This document shows, piece by piece, positions 7,929 through 38,476 of a stretch of DNA of 64,000 nucleotides. The stretch's first letter is position 1, and every line of letters begins with the position of its first letter. Position numbers and translations under genes: made by a program. The stretch is from an uncultured Gemmatimonadales bacterium (GTDB lineage Bacteria; Gemmatimonadota; Gemmatimonadetes; Gemmatimonadales; GWC2-71-9): positions 452,497 to 516,496 of the forward strand of contig CAVVWJ010000001.1 of the NCBI GenBank assembly GCA_963751925.1, read 5' to 3'. The notes under the pieces were generated by a model. That model saw only the letters and a list, made by a program, of their open reading frames with translations, ran no database searches and had not been told where the DNA came from.

Positions 7929-7958
7929 CGGAACCCTACCCCTTCTCGTAATGAGTCC

Positions 7959-21616: not shown

Positions 21617-22393
21617 ATGGGAATTGTCATGCCCGGGGTACGTAGCAGTCACCCTTCGCTTCCCGCGATCAGGGTTCGGCTCGAACCTGCGCTCGCTCGC
21701 CATCACTATCAGGACTGGAGTCATGGAAGCGAGCAGAGTGCTGCTTCAAATGCCCCGGAGTGGGTCCGGCGTAGCGTCAACTTTGTTCTTGCCCTGGTAG
21801 CGTTGATCGTCACCCTGCCGCTCATGGTGTTGATCGCGGTACTCGTCTGGGCCACGTCGAAGGGGCCCATCCTTTACACCCAGGTTAGGATCGGACTGGA
21901 TCGACGGAGGCCGGTGAGCAGCAGCCAGAATCACCGGCGCGAGCGGGACCTGGGCGGGGTACCGTTCACGATCTATAAGTTCCGCACCATGCGGGTGGAC
22001 GCCGAGCACCAGAGCGGCGCGGTCTGGGCCCAACAGAGCGATCCCCGGGTCACCCCGGTGGGCCGGCTCCTGCGCCAGTACCGGCTGGACGAGCTGCCCC
22101 AGCTGCTCAACGTGCTCAAGGGCGAGATGAACATCGTGGGCCCCCGGCCCGAGCGGCCCACCATCTTCGCCGAGCTGCGCGAGCACATCGCCGAGTACCC
22201 GCTGCGCCAGCGGGCCAAGCCCGGGATCACCGGTCTGGCCCAGATCAACCATCACTACGACCGCTCGCTCGAGGATGTCCGGACCAAGGTGCACTACGAT
22301 CTCGAGTACATCCGCCGCCAGTCCGTCACCGAAGACCTGCGGATCATGCTGAAGACCGTCCCCGTCATCCTCCTCCGACGCGGCGGCTGGTAG
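21617..22393 (+). CDS. Polyprenyl-phosphate hexose-1-phosphate transferase (bacterial sugar transferase, small WbaP/EpsL type), the priming enzyme
   Basis: One transmembrane helix FVLALVALIVTLPLMVLIAVLVW, then GPILYTQVRIG, FTIYKFRTM, RLDELPQLLNVLKGEMNIVGPRPERP and KPGITGLAQI. Confidence 0.9.
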   Translation: MGIVMPGVRSSHPSLPAIRVRLEPALARHHYQDWSHGSEQSAASNAPEWVRRSVNFVLALVALIVTLPLMVLIAVLVWATSKGPILYTQVRIGLDRRRPVSSSQNHRRERDLGGVPFTIYKFRTMRVDAEHQSGAVWAQQSDPRVTPVGRLLRQYRLDELPQLLNVLKGEMNIVGPRPERPTIFAELREHIAEYPLRQRAKPGITGLAQINHHYDRSLEDVRTKVHYDLEYIRRQSVTEDLRIMLKTVPVILLRRGGW

Positions 22394-22628
22394 CGCTTCT
22401 TCCATTGGGGGTTTGCCTCGGCCGCGTCCGTCCCGGCCGTGGCAGGCAAGCGACAGTCAGTGCCGCAGGACGGCCCTCCTGGCAGTTTCGGTTTCCGGAT
22501 CTCCCGCTCACCTGTTGCCGCTCAACGAGTTACCGACGCGCCCTCCGCCCGTCCTGAGGAATGGTGATTGCTGGTATGCAGATAACTTCGGGCATATGTT
22601 CAGCAGGTCCAGACCTTTACAAGTGGAG

Positions 22629-23609
22629 ATGATGACCCAGCCTTCTTTGTCCACTCCAGCATCCGGCAGCGCCCCCGGTCTTTCGGTGGTCGCTCCGCTC
22701 TACAACGAGTCGCAGAATGTGCGGCCGTTGGTCGAGTGGATTTTGCAGGCGCTCGTGACCTACCCTGAGACCTTCGAAATCATCCTGGTGGACGATGGCA
22801 GCCGGGACGAGACCTGGAGTGAGGTGCTGGCCTGCGCCGCTGCCGATCAGCATGTCCATGGTCTTCGGCTGGGAAGGAATGTGGGTCAGACGGCAGCCAT
22901 GATGGCAGGATTCGACCACGCACGCGGCAAAGTCATAGTGTCACTGGACGGCGACCTACAAAATGATCCGCGCGACATCCCGGCTCTGGTTTCGAAGCTG
23001 GATGAAGGGTATGACCTGGTGTGTGGCTGGCGCCGCCAGCGACAGGATAAGTTGTTGCTGAGGAAGATTCCCTCCTGGGTGGCTAACCGCCTGATCCGCC
23101 GGCTGACCGGGGTGCCGATCACCGACAACGGCTGCTCTCTTAAGGCATATCGACGCGACCTGCTCTCCCGTATCTCGCTGTACGCCGAGCAGCATCGTTT
23201 CATTCCCGCTCTCTCGGCGAGTATGGGGGCCCGCATCGCGGAGATGCCAGTGCGCCATCATGCGCGCCGGTTCGGCGAGAGCAAGTACGGGATTTCCAGA
23301 ACAGTCAAGGTGCTGATCGACCTGATCACCTTGAAGATGATCACCACCTTCAGGTCCAGGCCACTTCTTGGATTCGGAGTGGCGGCAATACCACCGCTGA
23401 TAGCCGCTTTCGTCTTCGGAACACTCTGGCTCTTCAGTCTGACGCACTTCAGCCCGGAAAAGGCGTCCGCACTGGTGTTTCCGGGCGCCGGCCTACTCTG
23501 GGTCGGACTCGCGTTCTACCTTTTCATGCTGGGCCTGGTGGCTGAGGTTGCTCTCAGCAGCGAACGCGGACATGCGAACGACATCCCAACCGCGTGGGAG
23601 ACCAACTGA
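22629..23609 (+). CDS. GT2 glycosyltransferase, GtrB/DPM1/ArnC-like polyprenyl-phosphate glycosyltransferase (intact acidic motifs)
   Basis: LSVVAPLYNES, ILVDDGSRD, SLDGDLQNDP, and two C-terminal transmembrane helices with LGLVAEVAL. The start is uncertain (ATG at 22596, 22629 or 22632); the ORF-track start at 22413 looks non-coding. Confidence 0.85.
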   Translation: MMTQPSLSTPASGSAPGLSVVAPLYNESQNVRPLVEWILQALVTYPETFEIILVDDGSRDETWSEVLACAAADQHVHGLRLGRNVGQTAAMMAGFDHARGKVIVSLDGDLQNDPRDIPALVSKLDEGYDLVCGWRRQRQDKLLLRKIPSWVANRLIRRLTGVPITDNGCSLKAYRRDLLSRISLYAEQHRFIPALSASMGARIAEMPVRHHARRFGESKYGISRTVKVLIDLITLKMITTFRSRPLLGFGVAAIPPLIAAFVFGTLWLFSLTHFSPEKASALVFPGAGLLWVGLAFYLFMLGLVAEVALSSERGHANDIPTAWETN

Positions 23610-23610
23610 C

Positions 23611-24597
23611 GTGAGCGCACAGGGAATCCTGATGGAGCGAGCTTCCGAAGCCGCAGTCGAGACGGTCACCGAACCCAGGCACATTTCGGTTGTTGTGCCG
23701 GTGGTGGAGCGTGCCGACGAGCTGATGGCGGTGTACCAGGCGTTCGCAAGAGAACTCGATGCGAGAGGCGAGAACTACGAGTTCGTCTTCGTGTTCGACG
23801 GACGGTTCAGCCCTCCACCCGAGCTGACTGCGCTCTCGCAACGGACCGACCAGGTACGAATTCTCCGTTTCGCCCGGCAGTTCGGCGAGACTGCCGCGCT
23901 GCGCCTCGGCATCGAGAAGAGTCGCGGAGATCTGGTGCTGACCCTGCCACCCTACTTCCAGGTCCAGCCATCGAGTCTGGGGTTGCTGCTGGACACTGCG
24001 GGCGGGGATGCCGACATGGCCGTGGCCAGCCGTTCGCCCCGGCTGGACAGTTGGCTCAACCGCCTACAGTCGCGTGCCTTCCACAGTATCGTGGGAGGCG
24101 TCTCCGAGCAGCGCTTTCACGATATGGCGTGCGGCGTCCGGCTGATGCCACGCTCGGTGGCAACGGCACTGCCTTTGTACGGTGATCTCCACCGGTTCAT
24201 CCCGGCGCTGGCGTTGCGTGAGGGTTTCCGGGTTCAGGAAGTCCCGCTGCCACAGCACCCCAGCGATGCCCGGACGCGGCTGTATCGTCCAGGCGTTTAC
24301 ATACGGCGCCTACTCGACATCGCGGCATTCTTCTTTCTCGCCAAATTCACCGAAAAGCCCCTGCGATTCTTCGGCCTTGTCGGCTCTCTATTCATGGCAG
24401 TCGGGGTGGTGTTGAGCATTATCCTTTTTGTGCAGCGGGTGGAAGGCCAAGGCATTGCGAACCGACCGGCTCTTCTGCTGGCCGTGTTGCTACTGGCTCT
24501 TGGCGTCCAGCTCATGGGGCTTGGCCTGGTCGGTGAGATCATCGTGCACCTCCGCGCTCCCCATCGGCGCACCTATCGGGTGCGCGAATGGGTGTGA
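23611..24597 (+). CDS. GtrB/DPM1-like GT2 paralogue with degenerate catalytic acidic motifs
   Basis: Same architecture as the upstream gene (ISVVVPVVE..., two C-terminal transmembrane helices, LGLVGEIIVHL). However, FVFDGRFS replaces LVDDGSRD and TLPPYFQVQP replaces SLDGDLQNDP. Start at GTG 23611 or ATG 23632. Confidence 0.75.
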   Translation: MSAQGILMERASEAAVETVTEPRHISVVVPVVERADELMAVYQAFARELDARGENYEFVFVFDGRFSPPPELTALSQRTDQVRILRFARQFGETAALRLGIEKSRGDLVLTLPPYFQVQPSSLGLLLDTAGGDADMAVASRSPRLDSWLNRLQSRAFHSIVGGVSEQRFHDMACGVRLMPRSVATALPLYGDLHRFIPALALREGFRVQEVPLPQHPSDARTRLYRPGVYIRRLLDIAAFFFLAKFTEKPLRFFGLVGSLFMAVGVVLSIILFVQRVEGQGIANRPALLLAVLLLALGVQLMGLGLVGEIIVHLRAPHRRTYRVREWV

Positions 24598-24679
24598 TCG
24601 CCCCCCGGACTCGTGTCGCTGCGGGTCCGTAAGGGCCCCAGCCCGCACACCCACCCGCGACGATCTTCCCCACTTCCGA

Positions 24680-26230
24680 ATGCGACGCGATCTTACCCGC
24701 CTTGGCGGCTCGACTTTCGACCTTCTGGTGGTCGGTGCCGGGATTCATGGTGCGTGCGCTGCCTGGGACGCTGCCCTGCGTGGTCTCTCGGTCGCGATAG
24801 TAGACCAGGACGATTTTGGTGCGGCAACATCGGGAAACAGTTTGAGAATCATTCACGGCGGGCTCCGTTACTTGGCCCGAGGTGAGTTTGGGCGCATGAT
24901 GGAGTCGGTGCGTGAGCGGTCGACGCTGCTCCGAATCGCTCCGGGGCTGACCGCGCCTCTGCCAGTCTTAGTGCCGACATATGGGGCCGGATCACAGAGC
25001 CGGGCGGCGTTCAGAGTAGCCCTCGGGGTGAACGATCTGCTCTCTTCACATCGCAACCGCGGCTTGGATCCGGCTCGACGGATCCCGGCAGGGCGTCTGG
25101 TGAGCCGGGACCAGTGTCTCCGACTCTTCCCCGCCGTACATTCCAACGGATTGACCGGTGGCGCCCTCTGGTTCGACGCTCAGATGCTGCACCCGGAGCG
25201 CCTCACCTTCAGCTTTGTGCGCGCGGCCACTAAACACGGAGCGGTTGCGGCGAATTACCTGCGAGTGGATCAGCTCCGCACTCGCGATCGAAGCGTAGTT
25301 GGTGCGCGAGTCACTGATCGTCTCACCGGCTCGGGGTTCGATATCGAGTCACGGGCGGTGTTGGTTGCGGCGGGTCCCTGGACCCATGAAGTTGTCGCAA
25401 AGACCATCAGCAACGGCCCCAGCGCTGCGCCGCGGCCGCGCCGAGCGTTTGCCATGAACGTGGTCCTGACGCGCCGTATCGCCGAGGTTGCCGTAGGGAT
25501 CCGTTCGAGCACCTCCAGCTGCGACGACCCGATTTGCGGGGGAGGGCGGTTCATCTTCATGGCCCCGCAAGGAGGGTCGACTGTTCTGGGAACGTGGTAT
25601 GCGCCCGAGGGGCAAGGCGACGCCGAAACCCTACGCGAACGCGGTGTGCGCGCGCTCCTCGACGAGTTCAACGTGGCGTGCCCGGGACTGGGACTTTCAC
25701 TGAGCGACGTTGCGCGGTGCCAGTGGGGTTGGCTCCCGCTCAAGTCGGGCCTGGAGCCCGGACGCGCCGATGCGCTGGCCGAACGCGCCCGGGTGATAGA
25801 TCATGGCCGGAGTCACGGCGTCCGGCACCTCCACTCGGTCGAGGGTGTGAAGTACACCACCGCGCGGAGCGTGGCCGAGCAGGCGGTGGACCGGATAGTG
25901 GCTGATCTGGGCCGAGCCGCCGCTCCATGCCGCACTGCGGAGATTGCGGTAGCGAGCGAGCTCGAGGCGGTCACACTGGCTGCTCCAGGCCGCACAGCCG
26001 AGGTGACGCTCCAGGCCGTGCGTGAGGAGATGGCCATCAAGTTGTCGGATGTCGTGTTTCGCCGTACTTCATTGGGCTCCGCCCCGGGACCCGAGCGCAC
26101 AGCGCTGGAAGAGGCGGCTCGAGCCGCGGGCGCGGAGCTCGGCTGGGATGCTACTCGCAGGGAGGCGGAAATTCAGGACGTGCTCAGGCAGACCGGTCGT
26201 TCGCTGCCCGCCATGGAGGCAGTAGGGTGA
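24680..26230 (+). CDS. FAD-dependent oxidoreductase, GlpD (glycerol-3-phosphate dehydrogenase)-like
   Basis: The ATG at 24680 gives MRRDLTRLGGSTFDLLVVGAGIHGACAAWDAALRGLSVAIVDQDDFGAATSGNSLRIIHGGLRYL, followed by C-terminal LSDVVFRRTSLG. The ORF-track start at 24428 lies inside the preceding gene. Confidence 0.8.
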   Translation: MRRDLTRLGGSTFDLLVVGAGIHGACAAWDAALRGLSVAIVDQDDFGAATSGNSLRIIHGGLRYLARGEFGRMMESVRERSTLLRIAPGLTAPLPVLVPTYGAGSQSRAAFRVALGVNDLLSSHRNRGLDPARRIPAGRLVSRDQCLRLFPAVHSNGLTGGALWFDAQMLHPERLTFSFVRAATKHGAVAANYLRVDQLRTRDRSVVGARVTDRLTGSGFDIESRAVLVAAGPWTHEVVAKTISNGPSAAPRPRRAFAMNVVLTRRIAEVAVGIRSSTSSCDDPICGGGRFIFMAPQGGSTVLGTWYAPEGQGDAETLRERGVRALLDEFNVACPGLGLSLSDVARCQWGWLPLKSGLEPGRADALAERARVIDHGRSHGVRHLHSVEGVKYTTARSVAEQAVDRIVADLGRAAAPCRTAEIAVASELEAVTLAAPGRTAEVTLQAVREEMAIKLSDVVFRRTSLGSAPGPERTALEEAARAAGAELGWDATRREAEIQDVLRQTGRSLPAMEAVG

Positions 26231-27417
26231 GGATCCTCGTGCTGGCCCCTCACCCATTCTTTCAGGCGAGGGGAACACCCCTTGCCGTCAGAACCGTTCT
26301 CGAGTTCCTCAGTTCCCGGGGACACGAGATCGACCTGTTGACCCTGCACGAAGGTGAGAACGTCGACATCCCCAACTGCCGGATCTATCGCATCCCTCGG
26401 CCGTTCGGTATCCGGGATGTTCGGCCCGGGTTCTCGCTCAAGAAGGTGGTGTGCGATGTCTTCATGTTCGGTAAGTGCCTGCGCATGGTCCGGCAGGGCC
26501 GCTATGACCTGATCCATGCGGTAGAGGAAGCGGCGTTTATTGCAGCCGCGATGCAGGCGTTGACCGGCATCCCCTATGTCTACGACATGGATTCTTCCCT
26601 GGCAGAGCAACTGGTGGACGCCTATCCCACACTGCATTTCGCCTTCCCCACCCTGCGCCGCGCCGAGGCGCTGGCGGTGCGGCGGAGCATGGGCGTCCTG
26701 ACGGTCTGCGCTGCGCTCGAAGACGTGGCTCACGGCCATGCCCCCAATATCCCGATCGGGAGGGTGGAGGATACGACGCTGTTGCTTCAGGGCCCCCACA
26801 CCGGAAATGGCACGTCGGGAGAGAACGTCCTCCCCGACGGTGTGGGGGACCAGGGCCCTGTGGCGATGTATGTGGGCAACCTCGAGCACTATCAGGGCAT
26901 CGGGCTTCTGCTGGAAGGCTTTCAGCATTCTCTCAAGCGGGTGCCGGAAGCTCGCCTGGTGATTGTGGGTGGCATGCAGAAAGACATCGTGCGCTACCGC
27001 GGCCGGGCGGCCGAGCTCGGCATCGAAGGCCAAGTGCACTTCCTGGGTCCACGACCTCTAGGGACGCTGGGCCTGCTGCTCCAGCGGGCTGACGTTCTGG
27101 TCTCGCCCCGCCTCAAGGGCCTCAACACGCCGATGAAGATCTATTCCTATCTGGACTCCGGCACCGCAGTGTTGGCGACCCGCCTTCGCACCCACACCCA
27201 GGTGCTCGATGATCGGACCGCATATCTGGTGGAGCCCACTCCCGAGGCGCTCGGCGACGGGCTGGCCGATCTCCTGAGTGATCCGGGACTCAGGGAGCGC
27301 CTTGCCAGCCAGGCCAAGGCTTACGTCCAACAGGAGTTCACGCCTGAAGCGGCCCGGCGGAAGCTGGGCTCCTTCTACAGCGTGATGGAAACCAAGGCCG
27401 CCGGGGCCAAGGCGTGA
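26227..27417 (+). CDS. GT4-family (GT-B fold) glycosyltransferase
   Basis: 396 aa. MRILVLAPHPFFQARGTPLAV..., with C-terminal VSPRLKGLNTPMKIYSYLDSGTAVLATR (an E-x7-E-like region). Overlaps the upstream stop. Confidence 0.85.
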   Translation: MRILVLAPHPFFQARGTPLAVRTVLEFLSSRGHEIDLLTLHEGENVDIPNCRIYRIPRPFGIRDVRPGFSLKKVVCDVFMFGKCLRMVRQGRYDLIHAVEEAAFIAAAMQALTGIPYVYDMDSSLAEQLVDAYPTLHFAFPTLRRAEALAVRRSMGVLTVCAALEDVAHGHAPNIPIGRVEDTTLLLQGPHTGNGTSGENVLPDGVGDQGPVAMYVGNLEHYQGIGLLLEGFQHSLKRVPEARLVIVGGMQKDIVRYRGRAAELGIEGQVHFLGPRPLGTLGLLLQRADVLVSPRLKGLNTPMKIYSYLDSGTAVLATRLRTHTQVLDDRTAYLVEPTPEALGDGLADLLSDPGLRERLASQAKAYVQQEFTPEAARRKLGSFYSVMETKAAGAKA

Positions 27418-28634: not shown

Positions 28635-28644
28635 GCAATCGGGT

Positions 28645-29463
28645 ATGACACCGCCGGACACAGAGTGGGCGCTCGCGTTGTTCAACCGCTCGGTACTCAA
28701 GCAGGCGAAATACCAGAAGTTGCTCGAGCACCTGGAAGATCCCTCCCAGAAAACCAGCCTCGACATCGGCGCGGACAACGGCGTCATCAGCTACTTGCTG
28801 CGCCAGCTCGGCGGCCGCTGGTACAGCGCTGATCTGGATCCTCGTGCGGTTGCTTCTATCCGGCAGCTGGTACGCGACGATGTGTACCAACTCGACGGCG
28901 GGAAAACGCCTTTCCAGGATCAGACGTTCGACCAGGTCGTAATCATCGATTTTCTGGAGCACATCGAGGACGACCGCGGATTCGTCCGGGAACTGGAGCG
29001 TATCCTCAAGCCCGGTGGCCGGGTCATCATCAACGTCCCCCATGTGAAGCCGCACTCGCTGCTGAACCAGGCTCGCCACCGCATCGGACTCACCGACGAG
29101 TGGCACGGGCATCTGCGGCCAGGCTACAACCTCGAGGGGCTCCGAGATCTTCTGGGCCCAGGCTTTGAGATAGAGCGGGCCACAACCTACTCGAGAGCGT
29201 TCTCGGAACTGATCGACACCGTGCTCAACGGGGCCTACGAGATGATGCGACGCAAGAAGCAGGACGGCGCGGTTTCGCAGAAGGGGACGGTGGTAACCCA
29301 GAGTGACATGAAAACCCACCGCAAAGAGTTTCTGCTCCTGTCGGCCCTCTATCCGGTTTTCTGGACGATGGCACGGCTCGATAGCCTGCTGCCGCTCCAA
29401 TCAGGGTACAAGCTCATTGTGCAGGCACGACTCCGGCCAGCAGCCTCACTCAAACCCGTCTAG
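28645..29463 (+). CDS. Class I SAM-dependent methyltransferase
   Basis: SLDIGADNG (motif I), ADLDP, VVIIDFLEHIED, LKPGGRVIINVP. Confidence 0.85.
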   Translation: MTPPDTEWALALFNRSVLKQAKYQKLLEHLEDPSQKTSLDIGADNGVISYLLRQLGGRWYSADLDPRAVASIRQLVRDDVYQLDGGKTPFQDQTFDQVVIIDFLEHIEDDRGFVRELERILKPGGRVIINVPHVKPHSLLNQARHRIGLTDEWHGHLRPGYNLEGLRDLLGPGFEIERATTYSRAFSELIDTVLNGAYEMMRRKKQDGAVSQKGTVVTQSDMKTHRKEFLLLSALYPVFWTMARLDSLLPLQSGYKLIVQARLRPAASLKPV

Positions 29464-29476
29464 AGCAGAGCCTTCC

Positions 29477-31303
29477 ATGGGAGCAGTCTACGGTATCTTC
29501 GGCGACTCCGACGCCAGCGAGCTCTCGGCGATCGGCAGTCGGCTGACTCATAGAGGTCCGGTCTCGGCGGAGTGGTCACCGGCGCCATCCGTGCATTTGG
29601 GGATGCGTGGTGCGCCGGGTACTCTGGAACAGCTTCAGGACGGTGTCCTCGCCTTCGATGGGTTTATCGACAACCGTCACGAGCTCGCTCTGCTGCTTGG
29701 ACACAAAGAGCCAGCACGCCCCTCACCTGCAACAGACGCGCTCCTGGTGCTGGAGCTTTTCTCGAGCCGAGGAGTGGATGCCTTCCAGCAGCTCGCGGGT
29801 CAGTTCGCGGTTGCGATCTGGGATGGGCCGGGCCGGCGGCTGCTCCTGGCCCGGGATAGGATCGGGTATGCGCCGATCTACTTCACCCTCGACAGCGGCC
29901 GTTTCGTATTTGCCAGTGAGTACAAAGCCTTGCTGGCGCTCGCCGGCGTTCCCGCGCGACCCAACCGCTCGGCCATTCAGGTGATCCAGTCCACCAAGTG
30001 GGTTCAGCCTGGCGTCACCTGCCTGGAGGGGGTCTTCCCGGTTGCTCCGGGCACCTGGGTAGCCGTGGACCAGGGGCACGTGCATACCGCTCGCTTCTGG
30101 GACATTCCTATCAAGGTGCTGCACCAGGACGAGGCTACGCATGCCGCGGCTCTCAGGTCGACGTTTCTGGAAACCCTGCGCCGACAGACGGAGCCGTATG
30201 ACAAGATCGGCGTGTCGCTCAGCGGTGGGCTCGATTCAGCGGTGATGGCTGCCGGGGCGCGACATGTAGCCCCGAACAAGGAGATTCACACCTTCACCGC
30301 CGGGTATGGCCCAGACGACAAGGAGGTCGTGAACGCGGCAAAGGTGGCCCGCGAGCTGGGGACGCATCACCATCCTCTGGTGCTCAACCCGGACGACCTT
30401 CCATCATTGCTGCCGTGGATGGTCTGGCACATGGAGGAGCCGATTGGCCGGGAAGACATTGCCTACCTCTTTGTCGCGGCCAGAGAAGCGGCGAAGCACG
30501 TAAACCTCGTGCTCACCGGCTTTGGATTCGATGGGCTGTTTGCCGGCTTGCCCCGGCACCGCATTGCAGATGTTGCTCTCCGGGTACCGGCCGTGGCGGG
30601 TCCGTTGCGGGAGTTCTACGACTACAGCGTACGGGGAGTGCAACCCCCCAGCATGGCAGGTGAGGCCCTCAAGCGCGCTTACTATCGCGGTCGTGATTTC
30701 CCGGCACCCCAGGTCCTTGGCGCCGCCCCGATCTCTCCGCTGCCAGGTTTCGGCGGTGGGGGCGATCAACCGCTGAGCGGGTTCTTACGGCGCGGCTTCC
30801 TGCTACTGCCATACCAGTCGACGGTGGAGAGGCTGTACACGGCATCAGGGGTCAGATTCAACGCTCATCACACCGATCCCGCCTTCCTCCAGGCAGCGTT
30901 CTCTATACCTGACCGGCTGAAGATCCACGGCCGGAGCCAGAAGTACATCCTCCGAAAGGCATGTGCGGGGCTGCTGCCGGAGTCGATCCTCAACTTCGGG
31001 AAGAGCTTCAATCGTCTGAAGCACGATCTGCACTTCAGTCGCGTGCTGGACCAGCTGGCCGATCAGCTGCTGGACACCTCGGCGGTGCTGGAACGTGGAC
31101 TGTTCGACCCGTCGTATGTCATGCGGTTGCGGCGTCGACCCGAGAGCAAGCCTTACTCCCAGGAGCGCGCCTACCGTCTATGGTCGATGCTGTTGACGGA
31201 GATGTGGAGCAGGATGTACCTCGACCGCCGTGGCGCGCCGCCAGACGTGCCCGTGGGGCCCTTACATCCTCTGGAGTCTCACGCAGAGCTGGTGCAAGCC
31301 TAA
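29477..31303 (+). CDS. Asparagine synthase (AsnB)-family amidoligase lacking the N-terminal Cys nucleophile
   Basis: The ATG at 29477 gives MGAVYGIFGD where the canonical sequence is MCGIxGIF. The synthetase-domain PP-loop VSLSGGLDSAV is intact. The ORF-track start at 29417 (MCRHDSG...) overlaps the upstream gene and does not align with the Ntn fold. Confidence 0.8.
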   Translation: MGAVYGIFGDSDASELSAIGSRLTHRGPVSAEWSPAPSVHLGMRGAPGTLEQLQDGVLAFDGFIDNRHELALLLGHKEPARPSPATDALLVLELFSSRGVDAFQQLAGQFAVAIWDGPGRRLLLARDRIGYAPIYFTLDSGRFVFASEYKALLALAGVPARPNRSAIQVIQSTKWVQPGVTCLEGVFPVAPGTWVAVDQGHVHTARFWDIPIKVLHQDEATHAAALRSTFLETLRRQTEPYDKIGVSLSGGLDSAVMAAGARHVAPNKEIHTFTAGYGPDDKEVVNAAKVARELGTHHHPLVLNPDDLPSLLPWMVWHMEEPIGREDIAYLFVAAREAAKHVNLVLTGFGFDGLFAGLPRHRIADVALRVPAVAGPLREFYDYSVRGVQPPSMAGEALKRAYYRGRDFPAPQVLGAAPISPLPGFGGGGDQPLSGFLRRGFLLLPYQSTVERLYTASGVRFNAHHTDPAFLQAAFSIPDRLKIHGRSQKYILRKACAGLLPESILNFGKSFNRLKHDLHFSRVLDQLADQLLDTSAVLERGLFDPSYVMRLRRRPESKPYSQERAYRLWSMLLTEMWSRMYLDRRGAPPDVPVGPLHPLESHAELVQA

Positions 31304-32319
31304 TGAACCAGCGAGATCATCGGGGCGACCGCCGAGAGATAGCCGGCTTTACGGTACCAGAGAGCCGTGCGCGCGAGCCCCTCCCGGAGGTCCACACCGG
31401 GCCGATAACCCAACTCCTCCCTGGCGCGATCGATTCGGAACGCCCGATTGGTCTTGAACCAGGACAGACGCCGGCGGAAAACCGGCGGAGTGAAACCGAT
31501 CGCCTTGCAGACCTTCTCAATGACGGCAGCGCCGAGCAGCGCCATGCCGTACCAGGGAAAGCGAAGAATTCTGACGTTCGAGCCTACCGCGGATCCCACA
31601 TACCGCACCAGTTCGTTCAGCGTGACGGCACGATCGTCTCCCGCTAGATAGATGCGTCCCTTGGCCTGCTCCGCGGTTCCGGCAAGCTCCAGGAGGTCAA
31701 CCAGATTTTCCACGTAGACGGGATGATTGAGCGTACGACCGTTCCCGACCATCAAGAACCACCCGCGTGAGACCATCCGAAATAGCTTCAACCAGCCACG
31801 GATATCGCCGGGGCCGTAGACTGACGTGGGTCGAACGATGACCAGATCCATCCCCTTGGCGATAAATTCCTGGCAGACCCGCTCGCCCTCCATCTTGCTA
31901 TAGCAGTAGTAATCCCTGGGAGCCATAGGCGAATTCTCGTCGCCGGGCGGCTCCGTCACGATGCCATGCACGCCCTGGGTGCTGCAATGAACCACCCGCC
32001 GGACGCCGTGTCGCTCCGCAGACTGCAGAACGTTCCTGGTTCCGTTCACCTCGATTTCCCAATACGCCGCATCGGGCTGGAGAATGTCGCCAAAGGGTGA
32101 GGCAAGGTGGTAGACCAGCTCGCAACCATCGATTGCCCGATCCACGTCCTCCGGATTCGTAACTGAGCCCGCCATCAACGTCGCGCCCCGAGCTTGCAGC
32201 TCTTCGTCGAACAGCCCGGGATTCTTATCGAGACTGACGACATGATGTCCTTTCCCCAATAGACGACGCACCAGATGTGAACCGACAAAGCCAGTCCCGC
32301 CCGTGACCAGTACCCTCAT
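31300..32319 (-). CDS. NAD-dependent epimerase/dehydratase (extended SDR), copy 1
   Basis: MRVLVTGGTGFVGSHLV, catalytic YYCYSK, VIVRPTSVYGPGD. Convergent 4-bp overlap with the AsnB-like gene. Confidence 0.88.
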   Translation of the reverse strand: MRVLVTGGTGFVGSHLVRRLLGKGHHVVSLDKNPGLFDEELQARGATLMAGSVTNPEDVDRAIDGCELVYHLASPFGDILQPDAAYWEIEVNGTRNVLQSAERHGVRRVVHCSTQGVHGIVTEPPGDENSPMAPRDYYCYSKMEGERVCQEFIAKGMDLVIVRPTSVYGPGDIRGWLKLFRMVSRGWFLMVGNGRTLNHPVYVENLVDLLELAGTAEQAKGRIYLAGDDRAVTLNELVRYVGSAVGSNVRILRFPWYGMALLGAAVIEKVCKAIGFTPPVFRRRLSWFKTNRAFRIDRAREELGYRPGVDLREGLARTALWYRKAGYLSAVAPMISLVH

Positions 32320-32364
32320 TGTTGACCCCGATCATTTAGAGCAACAGACGCCCAGCTGAACCGC

Positions 32365-33567
32365 TCAGACTACTCCTACGGCCTGGTAGAACCGCCGAAT
32401 GGCGGGATCGCGCAGCAAGCCCCCGTGCACCTGCAGCAGGTTCACGTCGCTGTTCCCGTTCGCCTCCAGGATCACCGGCACCCCCTCGGCATCCACCAGA
32501 ATGTCCCACCCCGCCATCCGGTTGAACGGCAGGCTCGCCGCCACCCGCAGCACCGTATCCGTGATCTCGGCCCACCCCGGCAGCACCGCCCCCGTGATCT
32601 GCGCCCCCGTGTCCGGATGATGGGTAAACTGCTGCTGCCCACCCCGGCCCCCCTTCAGGGGATGCATCCGCCCCTCCCCCAGGGTGCCGCTGCTCCGCTC
32701 GATCGGTGCCGAGATCCCCCCACCCGACCAGTTATCCGTCGGCACCGTATCGGCCGTCCCGATCCGCTGCACCGCCCGGGCGATGAACGGGGCCGCCTCG
32801 CCCGGGGTCCACAGCGTCAGCAGCCGCATGGTGTTGGCACTCCCCGGAAACAGCCCCCGCCAGAACGCCCCCTGCTCCAGCCGACGCTCGATCAGCATCG
32901 AGCCGGGGCTCCGGCGATTCTTGCCGGACCCCAACCTGTCGAGAAAGGCTTGGAGGTCGAACGGTTGGATGGTGCGTCCCCGCTGGCGGTGGAACTCTCC
33001 GCTACGGTACTCCAACATGAAAAGACCTTCGCCTCGAAGGCCGTCTTCCGGTTTGATGATCCAGCGAGCACCGTCTCCTTCCTGGCGGAGCCGCTCGACC
33101 AGCTCGGTGCTCGGGATGTACCTCGCCGCCCCACTGAATGGATCTGCCAGGATTCGCCCTTCGTAGATGAAGGCGCGCGTCTCCGCCTGACGCAGCCCCT
33201 TCGCCAGCAGGACCGACCGAAGTCCGAGCTTGTGGTCGTAGAGACCTTCCCACGCGTTGATCCGCTGACCCATCATGAGGTGCTGGTAGTCACTCAGGTA
33301 GTCGCGCGGATCGTTCCGAGGCAGATCGTAAATCGTGGCCGACTCGGCAAAGAAGCCGGATCGCCACATCTCGATTTTTCGACCGATGGGCAGGCCGGTG
33401 TGCGCCTTACGCTCATGTTTGAGCCAGCGGTAGCTCGCCTGCAGGGTCTGATACCCGTGAGTACCCAGCAGTTTACGGAGTGTGGAGGGGAGCTGCTCGA
33501 CCTTCCCGTCCCAGCGGAAGTAGTCGAAGTAAGGTTGTTGTGCGGCACTATTCGCGTGGGGATACAT
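32365..33567 (-). CDS. ATP-grasp ligase of the sugar-transfer-associated type (ATPgrasp_ST-like), copy 1
   Basis: 400 aa. WIIKPEDGLRGEG, LIERRLEQ, NWSGGGISAPI, AGWDILVDAEGVPVILEANGNSD. The C-terminal ~170 aa are nucleotide-identical to copy 2. Confidence 0.8.
   Translation of the reverse strand: MYPHANSAAQQPYFDYFRWDGKVEQLPSTLRKLLGTHGYQTLQASYRWLKHERKAHTGLPIGRKIEMWRSGFFAESATIYDLPRNDPRDYLSDYQHLMMGQRINAWEGLYDHKLGLRSVLLAKGLRQAETRAFIYEGRILADPFSGAARYIPSTELVERLRQEGDGARWIIKPEDGLRGEGLFMLEYRSGEFHRQRGRTIQPFDLQAFLDRLGSGKNRRSPGSMLIERRLEQGAFWRGLFPGSANTMRLLTLWTPGEAAPFIARAVQRIGTADTVPTDNWSGGGISAPIERSSGTLGEGRMHPLKGGRGGQQQFTHHPDTGAQITGAVLPGWAEITDTVLRVAASLPFNRMAGWDILVDAEGVPVILEANGNSDVNLLQVHGGLLRDPAIRRFYQAVGVV
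32381..32889. repeat. 509-bp perfect direct repeat, copy A, internal to ATP-grasp gene 1
   Basis: A base-by-base comparison shows 32381-32889 equals 35251-35759 (offset 2,870 bp). One mismatch at 32890/35760 is followed by 7 more identical bases, then abrupt divergence. Confidence 0.95.
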
Positions 33568-33636
33568 TGCTCAGCCTGTTGTAAAAAAAGCGGCAGCCAT
33601 GCCGTGGTGGTTCTTCATGGCAATCCGCCGTCTCGC

Positions 33637-35154
33637 GTGAAAGATCAGCTTGTGATCACTGCTTCCGCTAAAACCGCGCTCCTCCGCACCACCTTCAGCG
33701 GCTTCGGCACCCAGTACGCCGGCGCGCTTATAACCGGGGCCGGCCAGATCGTCGTCACGGCCGTTCTCGCACGGTTGCTGTCTCCGAGAGACTACGGTCT
33801 TGTGGGGTTGGCGGCGGTGTACGTCGGCCTGGCCGCGGTGCTTTCGCAATTCGGTATCGGGGCTGCCTTGATCCAGCGGATAGAACTCACTCCCCGTTTC
33901 GTCCGAGCCAGCTTCACCGCGACCGTTCTCATCGGAATCCTTACCACCGCCCTGGTCTGGGTTACTGCACCGCTGGCCAGCCGCATTCTTGGTGATCAGG
34001 GACTGATCCCCATCATCAGGGGCCTCAGTCTTACGTTCGTCCTGGCAAACCCCGGCTTCGTCGCCGAAGGCCTGTCGGAGCGACATCTCGCCTGGCGCCG
34101 GCTGATGTGGGTCGAGGTATGGGCCTTTGCCATAGGCTACGCCGTACCGGCGCTCTGGTTGGCCTTCGCCGGTTTCGGAGTGTGGGCGCTGGTGGGCAGC
34201 GCTCTGGGCCAGAGCTTTCTCCGATCCGCCATCTTGATGGTCTTGCAGCCTCATCCAAAGTCCCCCCGGATAGGGCCGGAGATCCGCGAACTTCTCCGGT
34301 TCGGAGGGGGTTTTACGCTGGCGCGAATCTTCAACTATGGCGCCAGCCAGGGCGACAATTTCGTAGTGGGCCGGGTCCTCGGTATCGAGGCGCTCGGGTA
34401 TTACGGTCGAGCGTTCAAGCTGATGATGATCCCGGTGACATACTTCGCCAGCATTGTCACCAAAGTGCTCTTCCCCATCATGTCCCGCCTGCAAGGGGAT
34501 TCCCCCCGGCTTCGATCCACGTACCTCACAGGAGCTGCGGTGCTCGGCCTGGTGAGCGCACCACTGGGAGCGCTGATGGTGGTCACCGCCCCCGAGATCG
34601 TCCTCGTCGTGCTGGGACCTAAGTGGGGTCCTACAGTTCTGCCGTTTCAGATCCTCACGGCCGCAATCATGCTCCGGAACGTGTACCTGATGGCCTATTG
34701 CCTCGACGGCGCCACCGGTGAGTTGAAGAAGCGCACCTTCCGAGATGGCATCTATGCCTTCGCTGTGGTGTTTGGCAGCTTGATCGGAAGCCGCTTTGGG
34801 CTGGTTGGAGTCGCGATTGGAGTCGTCAGTGCGATAGCGCTGAATTACTTCATCGGAGCGTGGATGAGCCTCGGAATTATCCGGGCCACCTGGCGGGACT
34901 ATGCGCGATCCCAGATTCCCGCGCTCGCGCTTGGCGCTGTGACGGCTGGCGTGGCGGTTCTGGTACGGCTGGCCTTGCTGCGAGTCGGGGCCGACCCGCT
35001 CGTCGTCCTCGGCCTCACCGGCCTGGTTAGTGTCGGCGCGATCGGCGGCCTCTATCTGCTGCAGCCGACCATTCTGGGTGAGTACGGTGGCCTCGCGGTC
35101 CAGCATCTCCTCTCGGCTCTTTCGTCCAAGGTGCCCACCGGGGAAGCCGGGTAG
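33637..35154 (+). CDS. Wzx-type polysaccharide/O-unit flippase (Polysacc_synt_3-like)
   Basis: A GTG at 33637 gives (M)KDQLVITASAKTALLRTTFSGFGTQYAGALITGAGQIVVTAVLARLLSPRDYGLVGLA..., with multiple transmembrane helices. The 909-aa ORF in the track (from 32425) is this gene fused in-frame to an antisense shadow of ATP-grasp 1. Confidence 0.8.
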   Translation: MKDQLVITASAKTALLRTTFSGFGTQYAGALITGAGQIVVTAVLARLLSPRDYGLVGLAAVYVGLAAVLSQFGIGAALIQRIELTPRFVRASFTATVLIGILTTALVWVTAPLASRILGDQGLIPIIRGLSLTFVLANPGFVAEGLSERHLAWRRLMWVEVWAFAIGYAVPALWLAFAGFGVWALVGSALGQSFLRSAILMVLQPHPKSPRIGPEIRELLRFGGGFTLARIFNYGASQGDNFVVGRVLGIEALGYYGRAFKLMMIPVTYFASIVTKVLFPIMSRLQGDSPRLRSTYLTGAAVLGLVSAPLGALMVVTAPEIVLVVLGPKWGPTVLPFQILTAAIMLRNVYLMAYCLDGATGELKKRTFRDGIYAFAVVFGSLIGSRFGLVGVAIGVVSAIALNYFIGAWMSLGIIRATWRDYARSQIPALALGAVTAGVAVLVRLALLRVGADPLVVLGLTGLVSVGAIGGLYLLQPTILGEYGGLAVQHLLSALSSKVPTGEAG

Positions 35155-35174
35155 CATCTGCCAGACCAACTGAG

Positions 35175-36428
35175 TCATGACGGGTTGCCATCCCGTGCCG
35201 CGACCTGATCGGGCTCCTTCCTGCTGGAGCCATTACTCACAACTCCAAACGCCTGGTAGAACCGCCGAATGGCGGGATCGCGCAGCAAGCCCCCGTGCAC
35301 CTGCAGCAGGTTCACGTCGCTGTTCCCGTTCGCCTCCAGGATCACCGGCACCCCCTCGGCATCCACCAGAATGTCCCACCCCGCCATCCGGTTGAACGGC
35401 AGGCTCGCCGCCACCCGCAGCACCGTATCCGTGATCTCGGCCCACCCCGGCAGCACCGCCCCCGTGATCTGCGCCCCCGTGTCCGGATGATGGGTAAACT
35501 GCTGCTGCCCACCCCGGCCCCCCTTCAGGGGATGCATCCGCCCCTCCCCCAGGGTGCCGCTGCTCCGCTCGATCGGTGCCGAGATCCCCCCACCCGACCA
35601 GTTATCCGTCGGCACCGTATCGGCCGTCCCGATCCGCTGCACCGCCCGGGCGATGAACGGGGCCGCCTCGCCCGGGGTCCACAGCGTCAGCAGCCGCATG
35701 GTGTTGGCACTCCCCGGAAACAGCCCCCGCCAGAACGCCCCCTGCTCCAGCCGACGCTCAATCAGCACTCCGCTGGGGTCTCGTTGCTCACGGTGGGCTC
35801 GTTCCTCCAGCGCCCCCACATAATTGTCGTAATCGAACACCTCGACCTCACGACCTCGCTGCCTGAGAAACTGGCCGCCGCGCCAGGTCAGCAGGAAGAT
35901 GTCCTCTCCACACCAGCCGTCCTCGGGCTTCACGATGTAGCTGGAGCCCTCTCCCGTGCCTCGAAGATGCTCGAACAGCTCCTCGAGCGAGACATACCGC
36001 GCGTTTTCTGCGAAGGGGGCCAAGAGGATTTGCCGCTGGTGGATATAGGCCATCGTCTCGGCCTGGCGGAATCCCATCGCCAAAAGCACGGACCGGAGAC
36101 CGAGCTTCCGCTGATACAGGCCTTCCCACGAGTTGATGCGCCCGCACCGAACGAAGTGCTGGTAGTCGCTCAGATACTCGGCAGGGTCGTTGCGGGGGAG
36201 ATCGTAGATGGTGGCGGACTCAGCGAAGAATCCTCGTCTCCACATATCGAACTTCTGGCCGAGCGGCAGACCGGTACGCGCCTTTCGCTCGTGTTTCAGC
36301 CAGGCGTAGCTGGAGCGCGCGGTCTGGTAGAGACGGAGATCGGCGCGACGAAGCGCCGCGGTGACAGGACCAAACTGCGCAGCAGCCTGGGACCCGCCGT
36401 TCGCGGTAGAGGGGTTTCGATCCTCCAT
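35175..36428 (-). CDS. ATP-grasp ligase of the sugar-transfer-associated type, copy 2
   Basis: 417 aa. YIVKPEDGWCGED, LIERRLEQ, then the same C-terminal half as copy 1 plus a unique 24-aa tail. The N-terminal half is diverged from copy 1. Confidence 0.8.
   Translation of the reverse strand: MEDRNPSTANGGSQAAAQFGPVTAALRRADLRLYQTARSSYAWLKHERKARTGLPLGQKFDMWRRGFFAESATIYDLPRNDPAEYLSDYQHFVRCGRINSWEGLYQRKLGLRSVLLAMGFRQAETMAYIHQRQILLAPFAENARYVSLEELFEHLRGTGEGSSYIVKPEDGWCGEDIFLLTWRGGQFLRQRGREVEVFDYDNYVGALEERAHREQRDPSGVLIERRLEQGAFWRGLFPGSANTMRLLTLWTPGEAAPFIARAVQRIGTADTVPTDNWSGGGISAPIERSSGTLGEGRMHPLKGGRGGQQQFTHHPDTGAQITGAVLPGWAEITDTVLRVAASLPFNRMAGWDILVDAEGVPVILEANGNSDVNLLQVHGGLLRDPAIRRFYQAFGVVSNGSSRKEPDQVAARDGNPS
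35251..35759. repeat. 509-bp perfect direct repeat, copy B, internal to ATP-grasp gene 2
   Basis: Identical to 32381-32889 (see copy A). Confidence 0.95.
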
Positions 36429-36553
36429 ATACGTACAGTCCTTTGAAAGCGTCTTAGGTGCCGACTTCGGCAGAGGCCCAATTTGGGGACTGGGAGCATT
36501 TATGGAGTGAGCAACGTCACAGCTTGGTGGCTGGGCTTATCTGCCTATGGCTC

Positions 36554-37534
36554 TCAGAGATAACCCATCTCGCGGTACCACTGCCCAGTCAGTCGCAGTC
36601 CCGCAGATAGCGGCACGCGCGGGACGTACCCGAGCTCACGTTTGGCGCGGCTGATGTCGAAGGCGCGATTCTGCCGGTACCAGTCCACTCTACGTGGAAA
36701 GATCGGTGGCGTGATGCCGAATGGGCGGCAGACCTTTTCTACTACGTGGCCGACCGCCACTACCGGCAGAACGGGGTAGTGAGGAATCCGCACATCAACG
36801 TCGAGTGCCCGGGCGACTTCCTTGACGATTTCCTCGATGGGATAGTAGTGCTCGTCGGCAATGAGGTATGCCCGACCGCGGCCGACACCAGGCGGCATGC
36901 AGAGGAGAAAGGAGTCTACCAGATTGTCGATGTAGAGCGGATGGTACAGCGTGCGCCCGCTGCCGAACATCGGGAATGTCCCTTTGGCGACCCGCTTGAA
37001 GATCATGAAAAACCGCTCGGGATCGCCGGGGCCATAGATGGCAGCGGGCCTCAGGATAACCGTCTCCATTGGTCCCGACTCCGCCAGCACGAGCGGCTCG
37101 GCTTCGTACTTGGTGCGCTGGTAGTAATCAGCGGGCTTGATGGGAGCATCCTCGTTGGCCGGGGGATGATCCACGTTTCCGTGCACGCCGCAAGTGCTGC
37201 AGTAGATGAACTTTCGCACGCCATGCCGACGGGCCGATTCCAGTACGACCCGCGTGCCGCCGACGTTCACGTCGTCGTAGAATGAGTTGGGTACATTCAG
37301 CTCGCGAAAAGCGGCCGCAAGATGGAATACGAGCTCCACTCCCGTCATGCTCCGCTCTACGGCGTCTTTATCAGTGACCGATCCGATGACCACCTCCGCG
37401 CCGTGGGCGCGCAAGGCGTCGCACTGCAGGCCCTCCTTGTAGTCGAGTGCCACCACCGCGTGGCCTTCGTCAATCAGCCGCTTTACTAGTGCAGTACCGG
37501 TAAACCCGGTGCCGCCTGTCACCAACACCCGCAT
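36554..37534 (-). CDS. NAD-dependent epimerase/dehydratase (extended SDR), copy 2
   Basis: MRVLVTGGTGFTGTALV, catalytic YYQRTK, VILRPAAIYGPGD. A paralogue of 31300-32319, with roughly half the residues identical by eye. Confidence 0.88.
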   Translation of the reverse strand: MRVLVTGGTGFTGTALVKRLIDEGHAVVALDYKEGLQCDALRAHGAEVVIGSVTDKDAVERSMTGVELVFHLAAAFRELNVPNSFYDDVNVGGTRVVLESARRHGVRKFIYCSTCGVHGNVDHPPANEDAPIKPADYYQRTKYEAEPLVLAESGPMETVILRPAAIYGPGDPERFFMIFKRVAKGTFPMFGSGRTLYHPLYIDNLVDSFLLCMPPGVGRGRAYLIADEHYYPIEEIVKEVARALDVDVRIPHYPVLPVVAVGHVVEKVCRPFGITPPIFPRRVDWYRQNRAFDISRAKRELGYVPRVPLSAGLRLTGQWYREMGYL

Positions 37535-37675
37535 GACCTACCTCCAGCATGGAAACGAGTAAGTGAAAATCTGTTTTGACGCCTACGCGGTGATGGTTGG
37601 CCACGGGCGCGAACAGTCCGGCAGACAGGGATCGCCCCGATGGACAGGGGTTCGCCCGCCCTCTAGCTTCTGGGC

Positions 37676-38476
37676 ATGAGCAGTAACGCCAGCTCCGCTC
37701 CCGGGCCGCAGCCGATCAACAGTCATCCACTGCGCCGATTCCACGAGCTCCGCGAGGACGCGGATATCGGGACGTCGTCCGAGGACTACGCACGCCGGTT
37801 TACCGGAGCGGTGGGACGATGGTTCGTGGAAACTCAGACACGCCTCACCCTGAGCGTTCTGAGCGCTCTGCCTGCCGGAGCCTCGGTTCTCGACGTGGGC
37901 GGCGGACACGCCCAGATTGCGCCTCCCCTGATCGAGCACGGCTATGAAGTTACCGTCGTTGGGAGCGATCCCGTCTGCGGTGCCCGGCTGGCGCCATGGA
38001 TCTCGAACGGCACCTGCAAGTTCGAGGTGGCGAACCTCCGAGCTCTTCCTTATCCGGACCGTTCGTTCGATGCCGTCGTCTGCCTTCGGCTGTTGCCGCA
38101 CAGCGTGGATTGGAACGGTCTGATTGCGGAGCTTTGCCGCGTTGCCAGGCGCTCCGTGGTCATCGACTATCCGTCGCTCCGCAGTGCCAATCTTCTCTCC
38201 GAGTACTTGTTCGACCTCAAGAAAGGCATCGAGGTGAACACTCGGCGCTTCATTTCGTTCACCCCGCGCCAGATTCACACCGCCTTCGCTGCCAACGGCT
38301 TTTCGGTCCGGGCAGAACGGCCCCAGTTTCTGCTCCCGATGGTGCTTCATCGGTTGGGCAAGCGAGCAGCCCTGAGCCGGCTCGCCGAGGCCCCGGGCCG
38401 ACTGCTGGGCATTACTCGCTGGTTCGGCTCCCCAATTATAGTCCGAGCAGATCGCCACGCGCTTCCCGACTCATAG
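37676..38476 (+). CDS. Class I SAM-dependent methyltransferase
   Basis: VLDVGGGHA (motif I), VVGSDP, FDAVVCLRLLPH, RRSVVIDYP. Confidence 0.8.
   Translation: MSSNASSAPGPQPINSHPLRRFHELREDADIGTSSEDYARRFTGAVGRWFVETQTRLTLSVLSALPAGASVLDVGGGHAQIAPPLIEHGYEVTVVGSDPVCGARLAPWISNGTCKFEVANLRALPYPDRSFDAVVCLRLLPHSVDWNGLIAELCRVARRSVVIDYPSLRSANLLSEYLFDLKKGIEVNTRRFISFTPRQIHTAFAANGFSVRAERPQFLLPMVLHRLGKRAALSRLAEAPGRLLGITRWFGSPIIVRADRHALPDS

Follow-up and report, generated by a model that had tools for sequence, protein, structure and literature searches.

A variable surface-glycan locus with a conserved pair of ATPgrasp_ST ligases and a flippase in a soil Gemmatimonadales bacterium

Do the two ATP-grasp ligases encoded in a polysaccharide locus of an uncultured Gemmatimonadales bacterium form amides on the glycan that this locus builds, and why do they travel with a flippase of their own? 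The locus occupies positions 21,617 to 38,476 of the window, by which we mean the whole 64,000-nucleotide stretch of contig CAVVWJ010000001.1 (assembly GCA_963751925.1) that was analyzed, and an initial annotation made from the sequence alone had suggested a fusion of two related modules and heavy amide modification. The region is a chromosomal locus building a lipid-linked surface glycan in a soil Gemmatimonadales bacterium. It is an ordinary variable surface-glycan locus with tailoring of the amidoligase type, and the main lead that it offers is a conserved module consisting of paired ATPgrasp_ST ligases (A1 and A2) and a flippase. The best explanation, namely, a core-and-cassette glycan locus in which the paired ATP-grasps form amides on a lipid-linked unit, has in our judgment an even chance of being correct.

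Open reading frames (ORFs) of the window were mapped by length and by the GC content of third codon positions (GC3) and then scanned against Pfam and NCBIfam. Relatives were compared by tblastn searches of the window proteins against 15 loci anchored on the ATP-grasps and 80 metagenome loci anchored on the priming phosphoglycosyl transferase (PGT), that is, about 100 loci; the window sequence is contained in soil metagenome runs.

A conserved core and a mosaic cassette

In the related loci, the backbone starts with a histidine kinase (HK_L), a σ54-dependent response regulator (RR54_L), a response regulator with a GGDEF domain (RR-GGDEF) and, optionally, a small ORF, and continues with the PGT, two family 2 glycosyltransferases (GT2a and GT2b), in some cases a flavoprotein of the DAO family and a family 4 glycosyltransferase (GT4), and a flippase of the MOP superfamily; on the right side, it is closed by a methyltransferase (MT2), a second kinase (HK_R) and σ54-dependent regulator (RR54_R), and genes for an Omp85-like protein, a DUF4390 protein, an HNH endonuclease and ArgR. 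In the minimal relative, L021, the same flanks enclose only the PGT, GT2a, GT2b and the flippase, so that the segment with the ATP-grasps is an accessory cassette inserted in a conserved, regulator-flanked core. Judging from this gene order, the locus is made of two layers, a lineage-conserved core and a mosaic tailoring cassette within it. The GC content is uniform over the locus, which speaks against a recently acquired foreign island.

The composition of the cassette varies widely: the number of ATP-grasps ranges from 2 to 4, whereas genes for the AsnB-like enzyme, short-chain dehydrogenases/reductases (SDRs), a CapK-like enzyme, a second GT4 and AlgX, MBOAT and GDSL proteins come and go. 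Locus L001 carries the A2/A1 pair twice, that is, four ATP-grasps, together with a single SDR. Between the two pairs, fragments of a flippase gene are found (8147-8637 in L001/L002) which, from their position, look like what is left of a duplicated A2-A1-Wzx module. In L004, AlgX-like, MBOAT and GDSL genes, that is, O-acetylation machinery, lie between the right kinase and MT2 (5102-9029), which shows that other tailoring cassettes can occupy this site as well.

Nearly all of the gene content first listed was borne out, in kind and in position, by the Pfam and NCBIfam hidden Markov models (HMMs), and the domain assignments support the claim of a polysaccharide locus (Table 1). This applies to the priming transferase, the two GT2s (one of them degenerate), the GlpD-like flavoprotein and the single GT4, to the two S-adenosylmethionine (SAM)-dependent methyltransferases identified by Pfam, which are class-I enzymes taken to be O/N-methyltransferases, to the degenerate GGDEF regulator, which reads GHSEF, and to the kinase and σ54-activator pairs on both flanks (16918-19631 and 38603-41163), which are also conserved in relatives. 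The proposed fusion of two related modules, in contrast, is not supported: the A2/A1 pair is ancestral (see below), and the other pairs are old and unrelated, with an identity of 25% between the methyltransferases of the window, 23% between its flippases and 26-36% between its two-component systems. The cassette is better seen as a mosaic of shuffled genes, and an added module is suggested only by the two SDRs, E1 and E2, which share 47% identity. The pairs of an SDR with an ATP-grasp that had been singled out both exist here, but such pairing is not obligatory, as L001 illustrates.

Table 1. Coordinates and domain evidence for the features of the locus and its flanks (positions in the window).
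Feature	Position	Strand	Evidence
Left histidine kinase, soluble	16918-18090	-	HisKA + HATPase_c; no hydrophobic segment
Left σ54-dependent response regulator	18087-19631	-	Response_reg + Sigma54_activat 219 bits + HTH_8; GAFTGA at residue 259
REC + degenerate GGDEF regulator	19849-20802	-	Pfam; GHSEF for GGDEF; conserved beside PGT in relatives
Small conserved ORF, 71 aa	21225-21440	+	Upstream of PGT, in the 815-bp gap between GGDEF regulator and PGT
PGT, small monotopic phosphoglycosyl transferase (priming)	21617-22393	+	Bac_transf PF02397 201 bits; one hydrophobic segment
GT2a, ArnC/GtrB-type polyprenyl-phosphate glycosyltransferase	22413-23609	+	PF00535 119 bits; NF007986 199 bits over nearly the full profile
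GT2b, degenerate GT2a paralog	23548-24597	+	PF00535 38 bits
GlpD-like FAD flavoprotein	24680-26230 (longest ORF from 24428)	+	DAO 134 bits + DAO_C 36 bits
GT4 glycosyltransferase	26227-27417	+	Glycos_transf_1 + Glyco_trans_4_4
Core flippase, divergent MOP/Wzx-type, 406 aa	27414-28634	+	About 10-12 transmembrane segments; homologs match PF01943
MT1, SAM methyltransferase	28645-29463	+	Methyltransf_11 66 bits
AsnB-like adenylating amidoligase without Cys2 nucleophile	29477-31303	+	Asn_synthase PF00733 175 bits
E1, extended SDR	31300-32319	-	Epimerase 142 bits
A1, ATP-grasp ligase	32365-33567	-	PF14397 ATPgrasp_ST, 99 bits
Repeat copy 1 (3' half of A1)	32381-32889		Exact 509-bp direct repeat
Cassette flippase, WzxC/TuaB-like MOP	33637-35154 (GTG start 33604, 33607, 33637 or 33652)	+	Polysacc_synt_3 236 bits
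A2, ATP-grasp ligase	35175-36428	-	PF14397 ATPgrasp_ST, 99 bits
Repeat copy 2 (3' half of A2)	35251-35759		Exact 509-bp direct repeat
E2, extended SDR	36554-37534	-	Epimerase 131 bits
MT2, SAM methyltransferase, conserved right edge of cassette	37676-38476	+	Methyltransf_23 + Methyltransf_11
Right histidine kinase, two transmembrane segments	38603-39790	+	HisKA + HATPase_c
Right σ54-dependent response regulator	39787-41163	+	Sigma54_activat 232 bits; GAFTGA
PaaK/F390/CapK-like adenylate-forming enzyme	44345-45631	+	NCBIfam DVU_1553, FlxY and PaaK models, all below cut-offs

The paired ATP-grasps and their flippase

The assignment of both ATP-grasps to PF14397 (ATPgrasp_ST) was confirmed far above the Pfam gathering threshold (99.1 and 99.3 bits against 31.4), and the ATP/Mg-binding residues K172, E227, D355, E368 and N370 are present in A1 as well as in A2. 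A role of PF14397 in surface glycans has been predicted computationally. Searched by sequence, A1 has no match in the PDB. The AlphaFold2 model of A1 (mean predicted local distance difference test score, pLDDT, of 87) adopts the ATP-grasp fold, with a Foldseek probability of 1.0 to Ddl, RimK and LysX; the nearest solved folds are those of Ddl, RimK, LysX/ArgX, L-amino-acid ligases, DcsG, PGM1 and PsnB, with low template modeling (TM) scores (0.4-0.55 to RimK and LysX). The two proteins are 59% identical in their N-terminal halves and 99% in their C-terminal halves, the latter corresponding to an exact 509-bp direct repeat that had been overlooked in the initial annotation.

In every related locus long enough to show both, A2-type and A1-type genes occur together. 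The two are usually arranged in tandem and followed by a convergent Polysacc_synt_3 flippase gene; such a flippase adjoins them wherever the contig reaches, and the pair is always found within the glycan cassette, between MT1 and MT2. In the tree of the N-terminal halves, the A2-type sequences form a clade separate from the A1-type genes. Given the constant association, the A2-type/A1-type pair is the ancestral unit.

The PF14397 profile retrieves 9,639 representative clusters at E≤1e-3, among which there are single polypeptides holding two ATPgrasp_ST modules. A scan of GTDB with the ATP-grasp motifs detected the subfamily to which A1 and A2 belong only in metagenome-assembled genomes of Gemmatimonadales and in one 2-kb contig binned as Burkholderiaceae, probably a binning error; the named homologs of the ATP-grasps and the flippase are likewise from Gemmatimonadales. 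Further afield, an Ensifer plasmid combines a DAO flavoprotein, a TupA-like ATP-grasp, two tandem ATPgrasp_ST genes, a convergent Polysacc_synt_3 flippase gene and a GT2, and in a haloarchaeal plasmid, an ATPgrasp_ST gene is accompanied by a convergent flippase gene and one resembling that of an O-antigen ligase. In Shinella, ATPgrasp_ST is encoded beside an acyl carrier protein, an AMP-binding enzyme, a pyridoxal phosphate-dependent decarboxylase and a nucleotide-sugar dehydrogenase, and in Halomontanus, near an AsnB-related gene. By analogy, the contexts in Ensifer, Shinella and Halomontanus indirectly suggest amide chemistry on a glycan.

The flippase gene between A1 and A2 is best matched in NCBIfam by the WzxC-like model PRK10459 (198 bits) and by TuaB (163 bits). 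The initial annotation was right that the locus encodes two Wzx-type flippases, both of which are genuine MOP flippases, but placed this second one on the minus strand. The Polysacc_synt_3 match sits in a plus-strand frame, and GC3 and the reading frame also favor that strand, so that the proposed arrangement, with E2-A2, flippase and A1-E1 all on one strand, is wrong for the flippase. The minus-strand ORF at 33571-35178 was ruled out as a flippase: its translation is hydrophilic, of low complexity and without a Pfam or NCBIfam match, that is, antisense junk.

Amide formation and its alternatives

Under the explanation that we favor, the small PGT would prime undecaprenyl phosphate. A1 and A2 would act together in the cytoplasm, activating a carboxylate as an acyl-phosphate and linking the carboxyl group of a sugar in the lipid- or nucleotide-linked unit to an amine or an amino acid via an amide bond, possibly in two successive steps. 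The AsnB-like enzyme would make a further amide via an acyl-adenylate, using ammonia or an amine in place of glutamine. The tailoring enzymes are all cytoplasmic, and none contains a transmembrane segment. Given that Wzx-type flippases are selective for the unit that they carry, the decorated unit would then be exported by the cassette's own flippase, with polymerization, ligation and outer-membrane export encoded outside the window. Because the C-terminal catalytic halves of A1 and A2 are identical, any difference in specificity or partner would reside in the N-terminal half.

A precedent comes from Campylobacter jejuni, where the TupA-like ATP-grasp domain of Cj1438 amidates capsular glucuronate at the C6 carboxylate (PMC11800379). 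This domain (Cj1438C, from the HS:2 capsule, PF14305) and the pair described here have in common that a cytoplasmic ATP-grasp is encoded in a variable surface-glycan locus, and a kinship in context is apparent in Ensifer, where the TupA-like gene lies directly beside the PF14397 pair. There are, however, several differences: A1 and A2 belong to another Pfam family (neither matches the PF14305 HMM at E≤0.01) and form a stand-alone conserved pair, whereas the Cj1438C domain is fused to a GT2; Wzx flippases are present here and an ABC transporter there; and no Ugd, aminotransferase, decarboxylase or HAD phosphatase accompanies A1 and A2.

The AsnB-like enzyme was said to lack its glutaminase cysteine, and this stands, both here and in the L009 ortholog. 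The realistic start, ATG at 29477, yields the N-terminus MGAVYGIFG, with no Cys2 (MGAVYGILG in the ortholog); an alternative upstream TTG start would yield MCRHDS, overlaps MT1 and gives no alignment to the domain. Because the ATG is the most plausible start and the ortholog has the same N-terminus, the cysteine is truly absent. The PP-loop, SGGLDS at residue 249, is retained, and the best PDB matches are 7ylz and β-lactam synthetase, with E-values of 1e-20 and weaker. With the Cys-less members of the AsnB family (β-lactam synthetase, CarA, lasso-peptide cyclases and the TsnB9-type hydroxyamidotransferase), the enzyme shares the preserved PP-loop synthetase and the lost N-terminal Cys; it differs from them by the low identity reflected in these E-values and by its setting in a glycan locus, not in a β-lactam pathway or one for peptides made on the ribosome and modified after translation (RiPPs).

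Several observations weigh against this explanation. Neither the locus nor the window encodes a UDP-sugar dehydrogenase or any other enzyme that would form a carboxylate, and an aminotransferase or decarboxylase for making the amine is likewise absent from both. Among the Pfam-scanned and multi-transmembrane ORFs of the window, there is no Wzy, Wzz/Wzc, Wza, WaaL or GT-C protein, although these may be encoded elsewhere in the genome. Literature searches turned up no paper naming PF14397 or ATPgrasp_ST and no member with demonstrated activity. The fold matches of A1 include the inositol-pyrophosphate kinases PPIP5K2 and Asp1, and the ATP-grasp fold also includes kinases. PF14397 homologs occur in non-glycan contexts as well, namely, with a TOMM/YcaO cluster, SOS/mobile genes and catabolic genes. 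Finally, a scan for the σ54 -24/-12 consensus gave 20 matches where 26 are expected by chance, none of them in the intergenic regions of the locus.

The initial annotation had already pointed out the absence of Wzy, Wza/Wzc, exosortase/PEP-CTERM components, a nucleotide-sugar dehydrogenase and GT-C; for the window, this holds because the multi-transmembrane ORFs are all accounted for (only a CDF transporter, the two flippases, an OppC-like permease and an MsbA-like ABC exporter) and because tblastn with a related exosortase, complemented by a motif scan for exosortase/PEP-CTERM, came back empty. Its heavy amide modification, in turn, remains an inference, the locus encoding no carboxylate- or amine-forming enzyme; we would bet neither on amide decoration nor against it.

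Among the alternatives, the one that fares best, although we consider it unlikely, is that A1 and A2 together assemble a short chain, either a peptide or a poly-amino acid, much as RimK or the teichuronopeptide enzyme TupA does, and that this chain, instead of a single amide substituent on a sugar carboxylate, becomes attached to the glycan or leaves the cell along with it. Apart from the closest folds, which include RimK, LysX/ArgX, L-amino-acid ligases, PGM1 and PsnB, this possibility is in line with the only NCBIfam match of the ATP-grasps, the α-L-glutamate ligase-like model TIGR02291, with the occurrence of 2-4 copies and of two-module fusion proteins, as expected for stepwise elongation, and with the resemblance of the cassette flippase to TuaB. 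The TIGR02291 scores are tiny, however (22-26 bits against a cut-off of 314), the TM-scores to RimK and LysX are low, and no gene for a peptide carrier or precursor is evident.

Somewhat less probable still is that the locus represents the biosynthetic arm of an exopolysaccharide (EPS) system of the exosortase/PEP-CTERM type, with the exosortase and export genes located elsewhere and the left σ54 system serving as a PrsK/PrsR-like regulator. AsnB-family amidotransferases are typical of the XrtA/PEP-CTERM exosortase EPS systems, with which the locus shares a module consisting of a σ54 response regulator, a kinase and an EpsB-type PGT. The linkage of the left two-component system to the PGT extends down to about 55% PGT identity, and in many of the more distant contigs, PGT homologs of 52-75% identity that have the same RR-σ54, kinase and GGDEF neighbors are directly followed by genes for an exosortase, a PEP-CTERM protein and an AsnB of the canonical kind. 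For the PGT, GT4, the AsnB-like enzyme and both response regulators, NCBIfam yields XrtA/PEP-CTERM matches, but every score lies below the curated cut-off: 374-379 against 502.6 bits for PrsR (the left regulator matches the PrsR-like model TIGR02915 with 374 bits, cut-off 502), 90 against 300 for PrsK (right kinase), 226 against 393 for EpsB_2 and 138 against 817 for the amidotransferase. For the left kinase, which is short and soluble in contrast to the approximately 680-aa, multi-transmembrane PrsK, no match to the PrsK model is listed in NCBIfam. Furthermore, neither an exosortase nor a PEP-CTERM protein is encoded in the 64 kb, and in the closest relatives, the PGT is followed by GT2a, not by an exosortase. 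This alternative concerns export and regulation and is compatible with amide formation by the ATP-grasps.

It is improbable, more so than either of the above, that the ATP-grasps do not act on the glycan at all and are mere neighbors that modify a protein or small metabolite or function as kinases. The non-glycan contexts of some PF14397 homologs and the inositol-pyrophosphate kinases among the fold matches would fit such a role, but in Gemmatimonadales, Ensifer and a haloarchaeon, close full-length homologs show tight linkage to a MOP flippase, and the pair invariably lies in the glycan cassette, between MT1 and MT2.

The possibility that the near-identical ATP-grasp genes are an assembly artifact, a collapsed or chimeric repeat, comes to mind because exact identity over 509 bp is unusual between paralogs that are otherwise about 60-70% identical (the level of their 5' halves), but it was rejected as hardly credible: Logan contigs from four separate soil runs tie each repeat copy to its unique flanks, contigs of near relatives join either an A1-type (P0001) or an A2-type (P0017) N-terminal half to the same C-terminal half (98% identity, separate contigs), and the A2/A1 pair is kept in all relatives. 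Given the independent contigs that span the flanks and the C-terminal half shared by P0001 and P0017, the identity is real and recent. In five other loci, the paralog pairs are 62-77% identical over the matching 3' region, with exact runs of 22 nt at most. We attribute the identity in the window to gene conversion, and the C-terminal-half tree, in which the window copies fall among A2-type sequences (without branch support), suggests the direction from A2 to A1. The two repeats are direct and 2,870 bp apart. A crossover between the copies would remove the cassette flippase together with A1's N-terminal half, so that only one gene, A2, would be left; no such joint was seen in the four metagenome runs.

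Returning to amide formation on the lipid-linked unit, gene conversion would suggest that the catalytic halves are interchangeable. We put forward, tentatively and as more likely wrong than right, that the A2/A1 pair and its dedicated Polysacc_synt_3 flippase could constitute a portable three-gene module, in which a two-site ligase would equip a lipid-linked sugar with an amide or peptide side chain of two residues and the unit would be exported by the module's own flippase, with the N-terminal halves setting specificity and the catalytic halves being exchangeable. The module is distributed over Gemmatimonadota, Alphaproteobacteria and, in part, haloarchaea, and the ligases are sometimes fused.

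Remaining genes, flanks and implications

In the core, the PGT scores below the cut-offs of TIGR03025 and TIGR03013. GT2a, which probably starts at 22596-22632, contains the DDGS and DGD motifs and two C-terminal transmembrane helices (316-344 and 351-383). GT2b retains both helices but has lost the DXD motif (TLPPYFQ where GT2a reads SLDGDLQ); it is kept in relatives at 69-78% identity and is catalytically dead, probably serving as a heteromeric partner. The GlpD-like flavoprotein, taken to act at the membrane surface and with a probable start at 24680, scores far below the cut-offs of the glycerol-3-phosphate dehydrogenase/oxidase models; both this protein and GT4 are missing from the minimal relative. 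A DprE1/DprE2-like two-step epimerization of a lipid-phosphate sugar by the flavoprotein and an SDR is an idea only, prompted solely by their frequent co-occurrence. The core flippase, present in L021, has no Pfam match of its own, but some of its more than 1,000 close homologs match PF01943, and JGI names such homologs "O-antigen/teichoic acid export membrane protein"; given that the homologs are MOP flippases, identification of this 406-aa membrane protein as Wzy or GT-C was ruled out.

With Wzx/Wzy-dependent loci for O-antigen, capsule and EPS, such as those for colanic acid (WzxC) and teichuronic acid (TuaB), the locus shares a priming PGT, GT2 and GT4 enzymes, MOP flippases and tailoring enzymes, as well as a gene content that is mosaic between strains. 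Unlike those loci, it comes without Wzy, Wzz/Wzc and Wza in the 64 kb, encodes two flippases, and has in its core an ArnC/GtrB-type GT2 with a dead paralog and no GT-C partner.

As for the other tailoring genes, E1 and E2 were confirmed as extended SDRs, whereas the name epimerase/dehydratase given to them is a superfamily label only. The PDB matches of E1 are nucleotide-sugar epimerases and related oxidoreductases; the best models for the SDRs, of the HpnA/OleD/3β-HSD type, score far below their cut-offs; and the Asp-Glu pair of the 4,6-dehydratases is missing (STQGVHG and STCGVHG). MT2, which adjoins the right kinase, is 59-72% identical in relatives. The CapK/F390-like enzyme that had been linked to the locus exists, but its gene is an accessory insertion between the HNH endonuclease gene and argR (43618-45631), missing at this place in L010 and L021. 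It shares no more than 26-29% identity with the CapK-like gene that relatives carry in their cassette, and its connection to the locus is unproven.

Both σ54-dependent response regulators combine a REC domain, an AAA+ domain with GAFTGA and HTH_8 and adjoin a histidine kinase gene, and the left kinase is linked to PGT homologs in many contigs; synteny of this kind suggests σ54 control of the locus. Scans for σ70 promoters and terminators gave nothing above shuffled sequences. The small ORF upstream of the PGT gene is conserved at the protein level in 7 related loci, including L021, with the C-terminal motif ELSxFSQRLASFGLGExPDPLLTExRPPxKRR. Upstream of it lie non-coding blocks (20843-20990) that are conserved in relatives. 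They contain a near-palindrome, GCAGGAGTCGTGC, and, some 100 nt further downstream, around 20953, a weak GG-N10-GC element, TGGATGCTGAGATGC, which is present in 4 of 5 relatives and matches the consensus poorly; together, the two could be an activator site and a σ54 promoter.

To the right (41187-43606, plus strand), a 574-aa secreted Omp85-like protein, which is only weakly matched and resembles bactofilin in its N-terminal region, is encoded together with a DUF4390 protein. These genes come after the right σ54 system in every relative and may be its real regulon, rather than the glycan genes. A second glycan-related cluster (55679-63375) contains three or four GT4 genes (56317-57573, 57566-58666 and 60599-61528), a 287-aa ORF and the MsbA-like ABC exporter (61543-63375).

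The locus and its relatives amount to a natural experiment, in which the same backbone comes without the cassette, with two ligases or with four. If the ATP-grasp pair could be tied to one particular glycan substituent, the PF14397 family would gain a function, and the reason why the pair travels with its own flippase would be explained. Gemmatimonadota are an abundant but poorly studied soil phylum, and such a link would add to the knowledge of their cell-surface chemistry.

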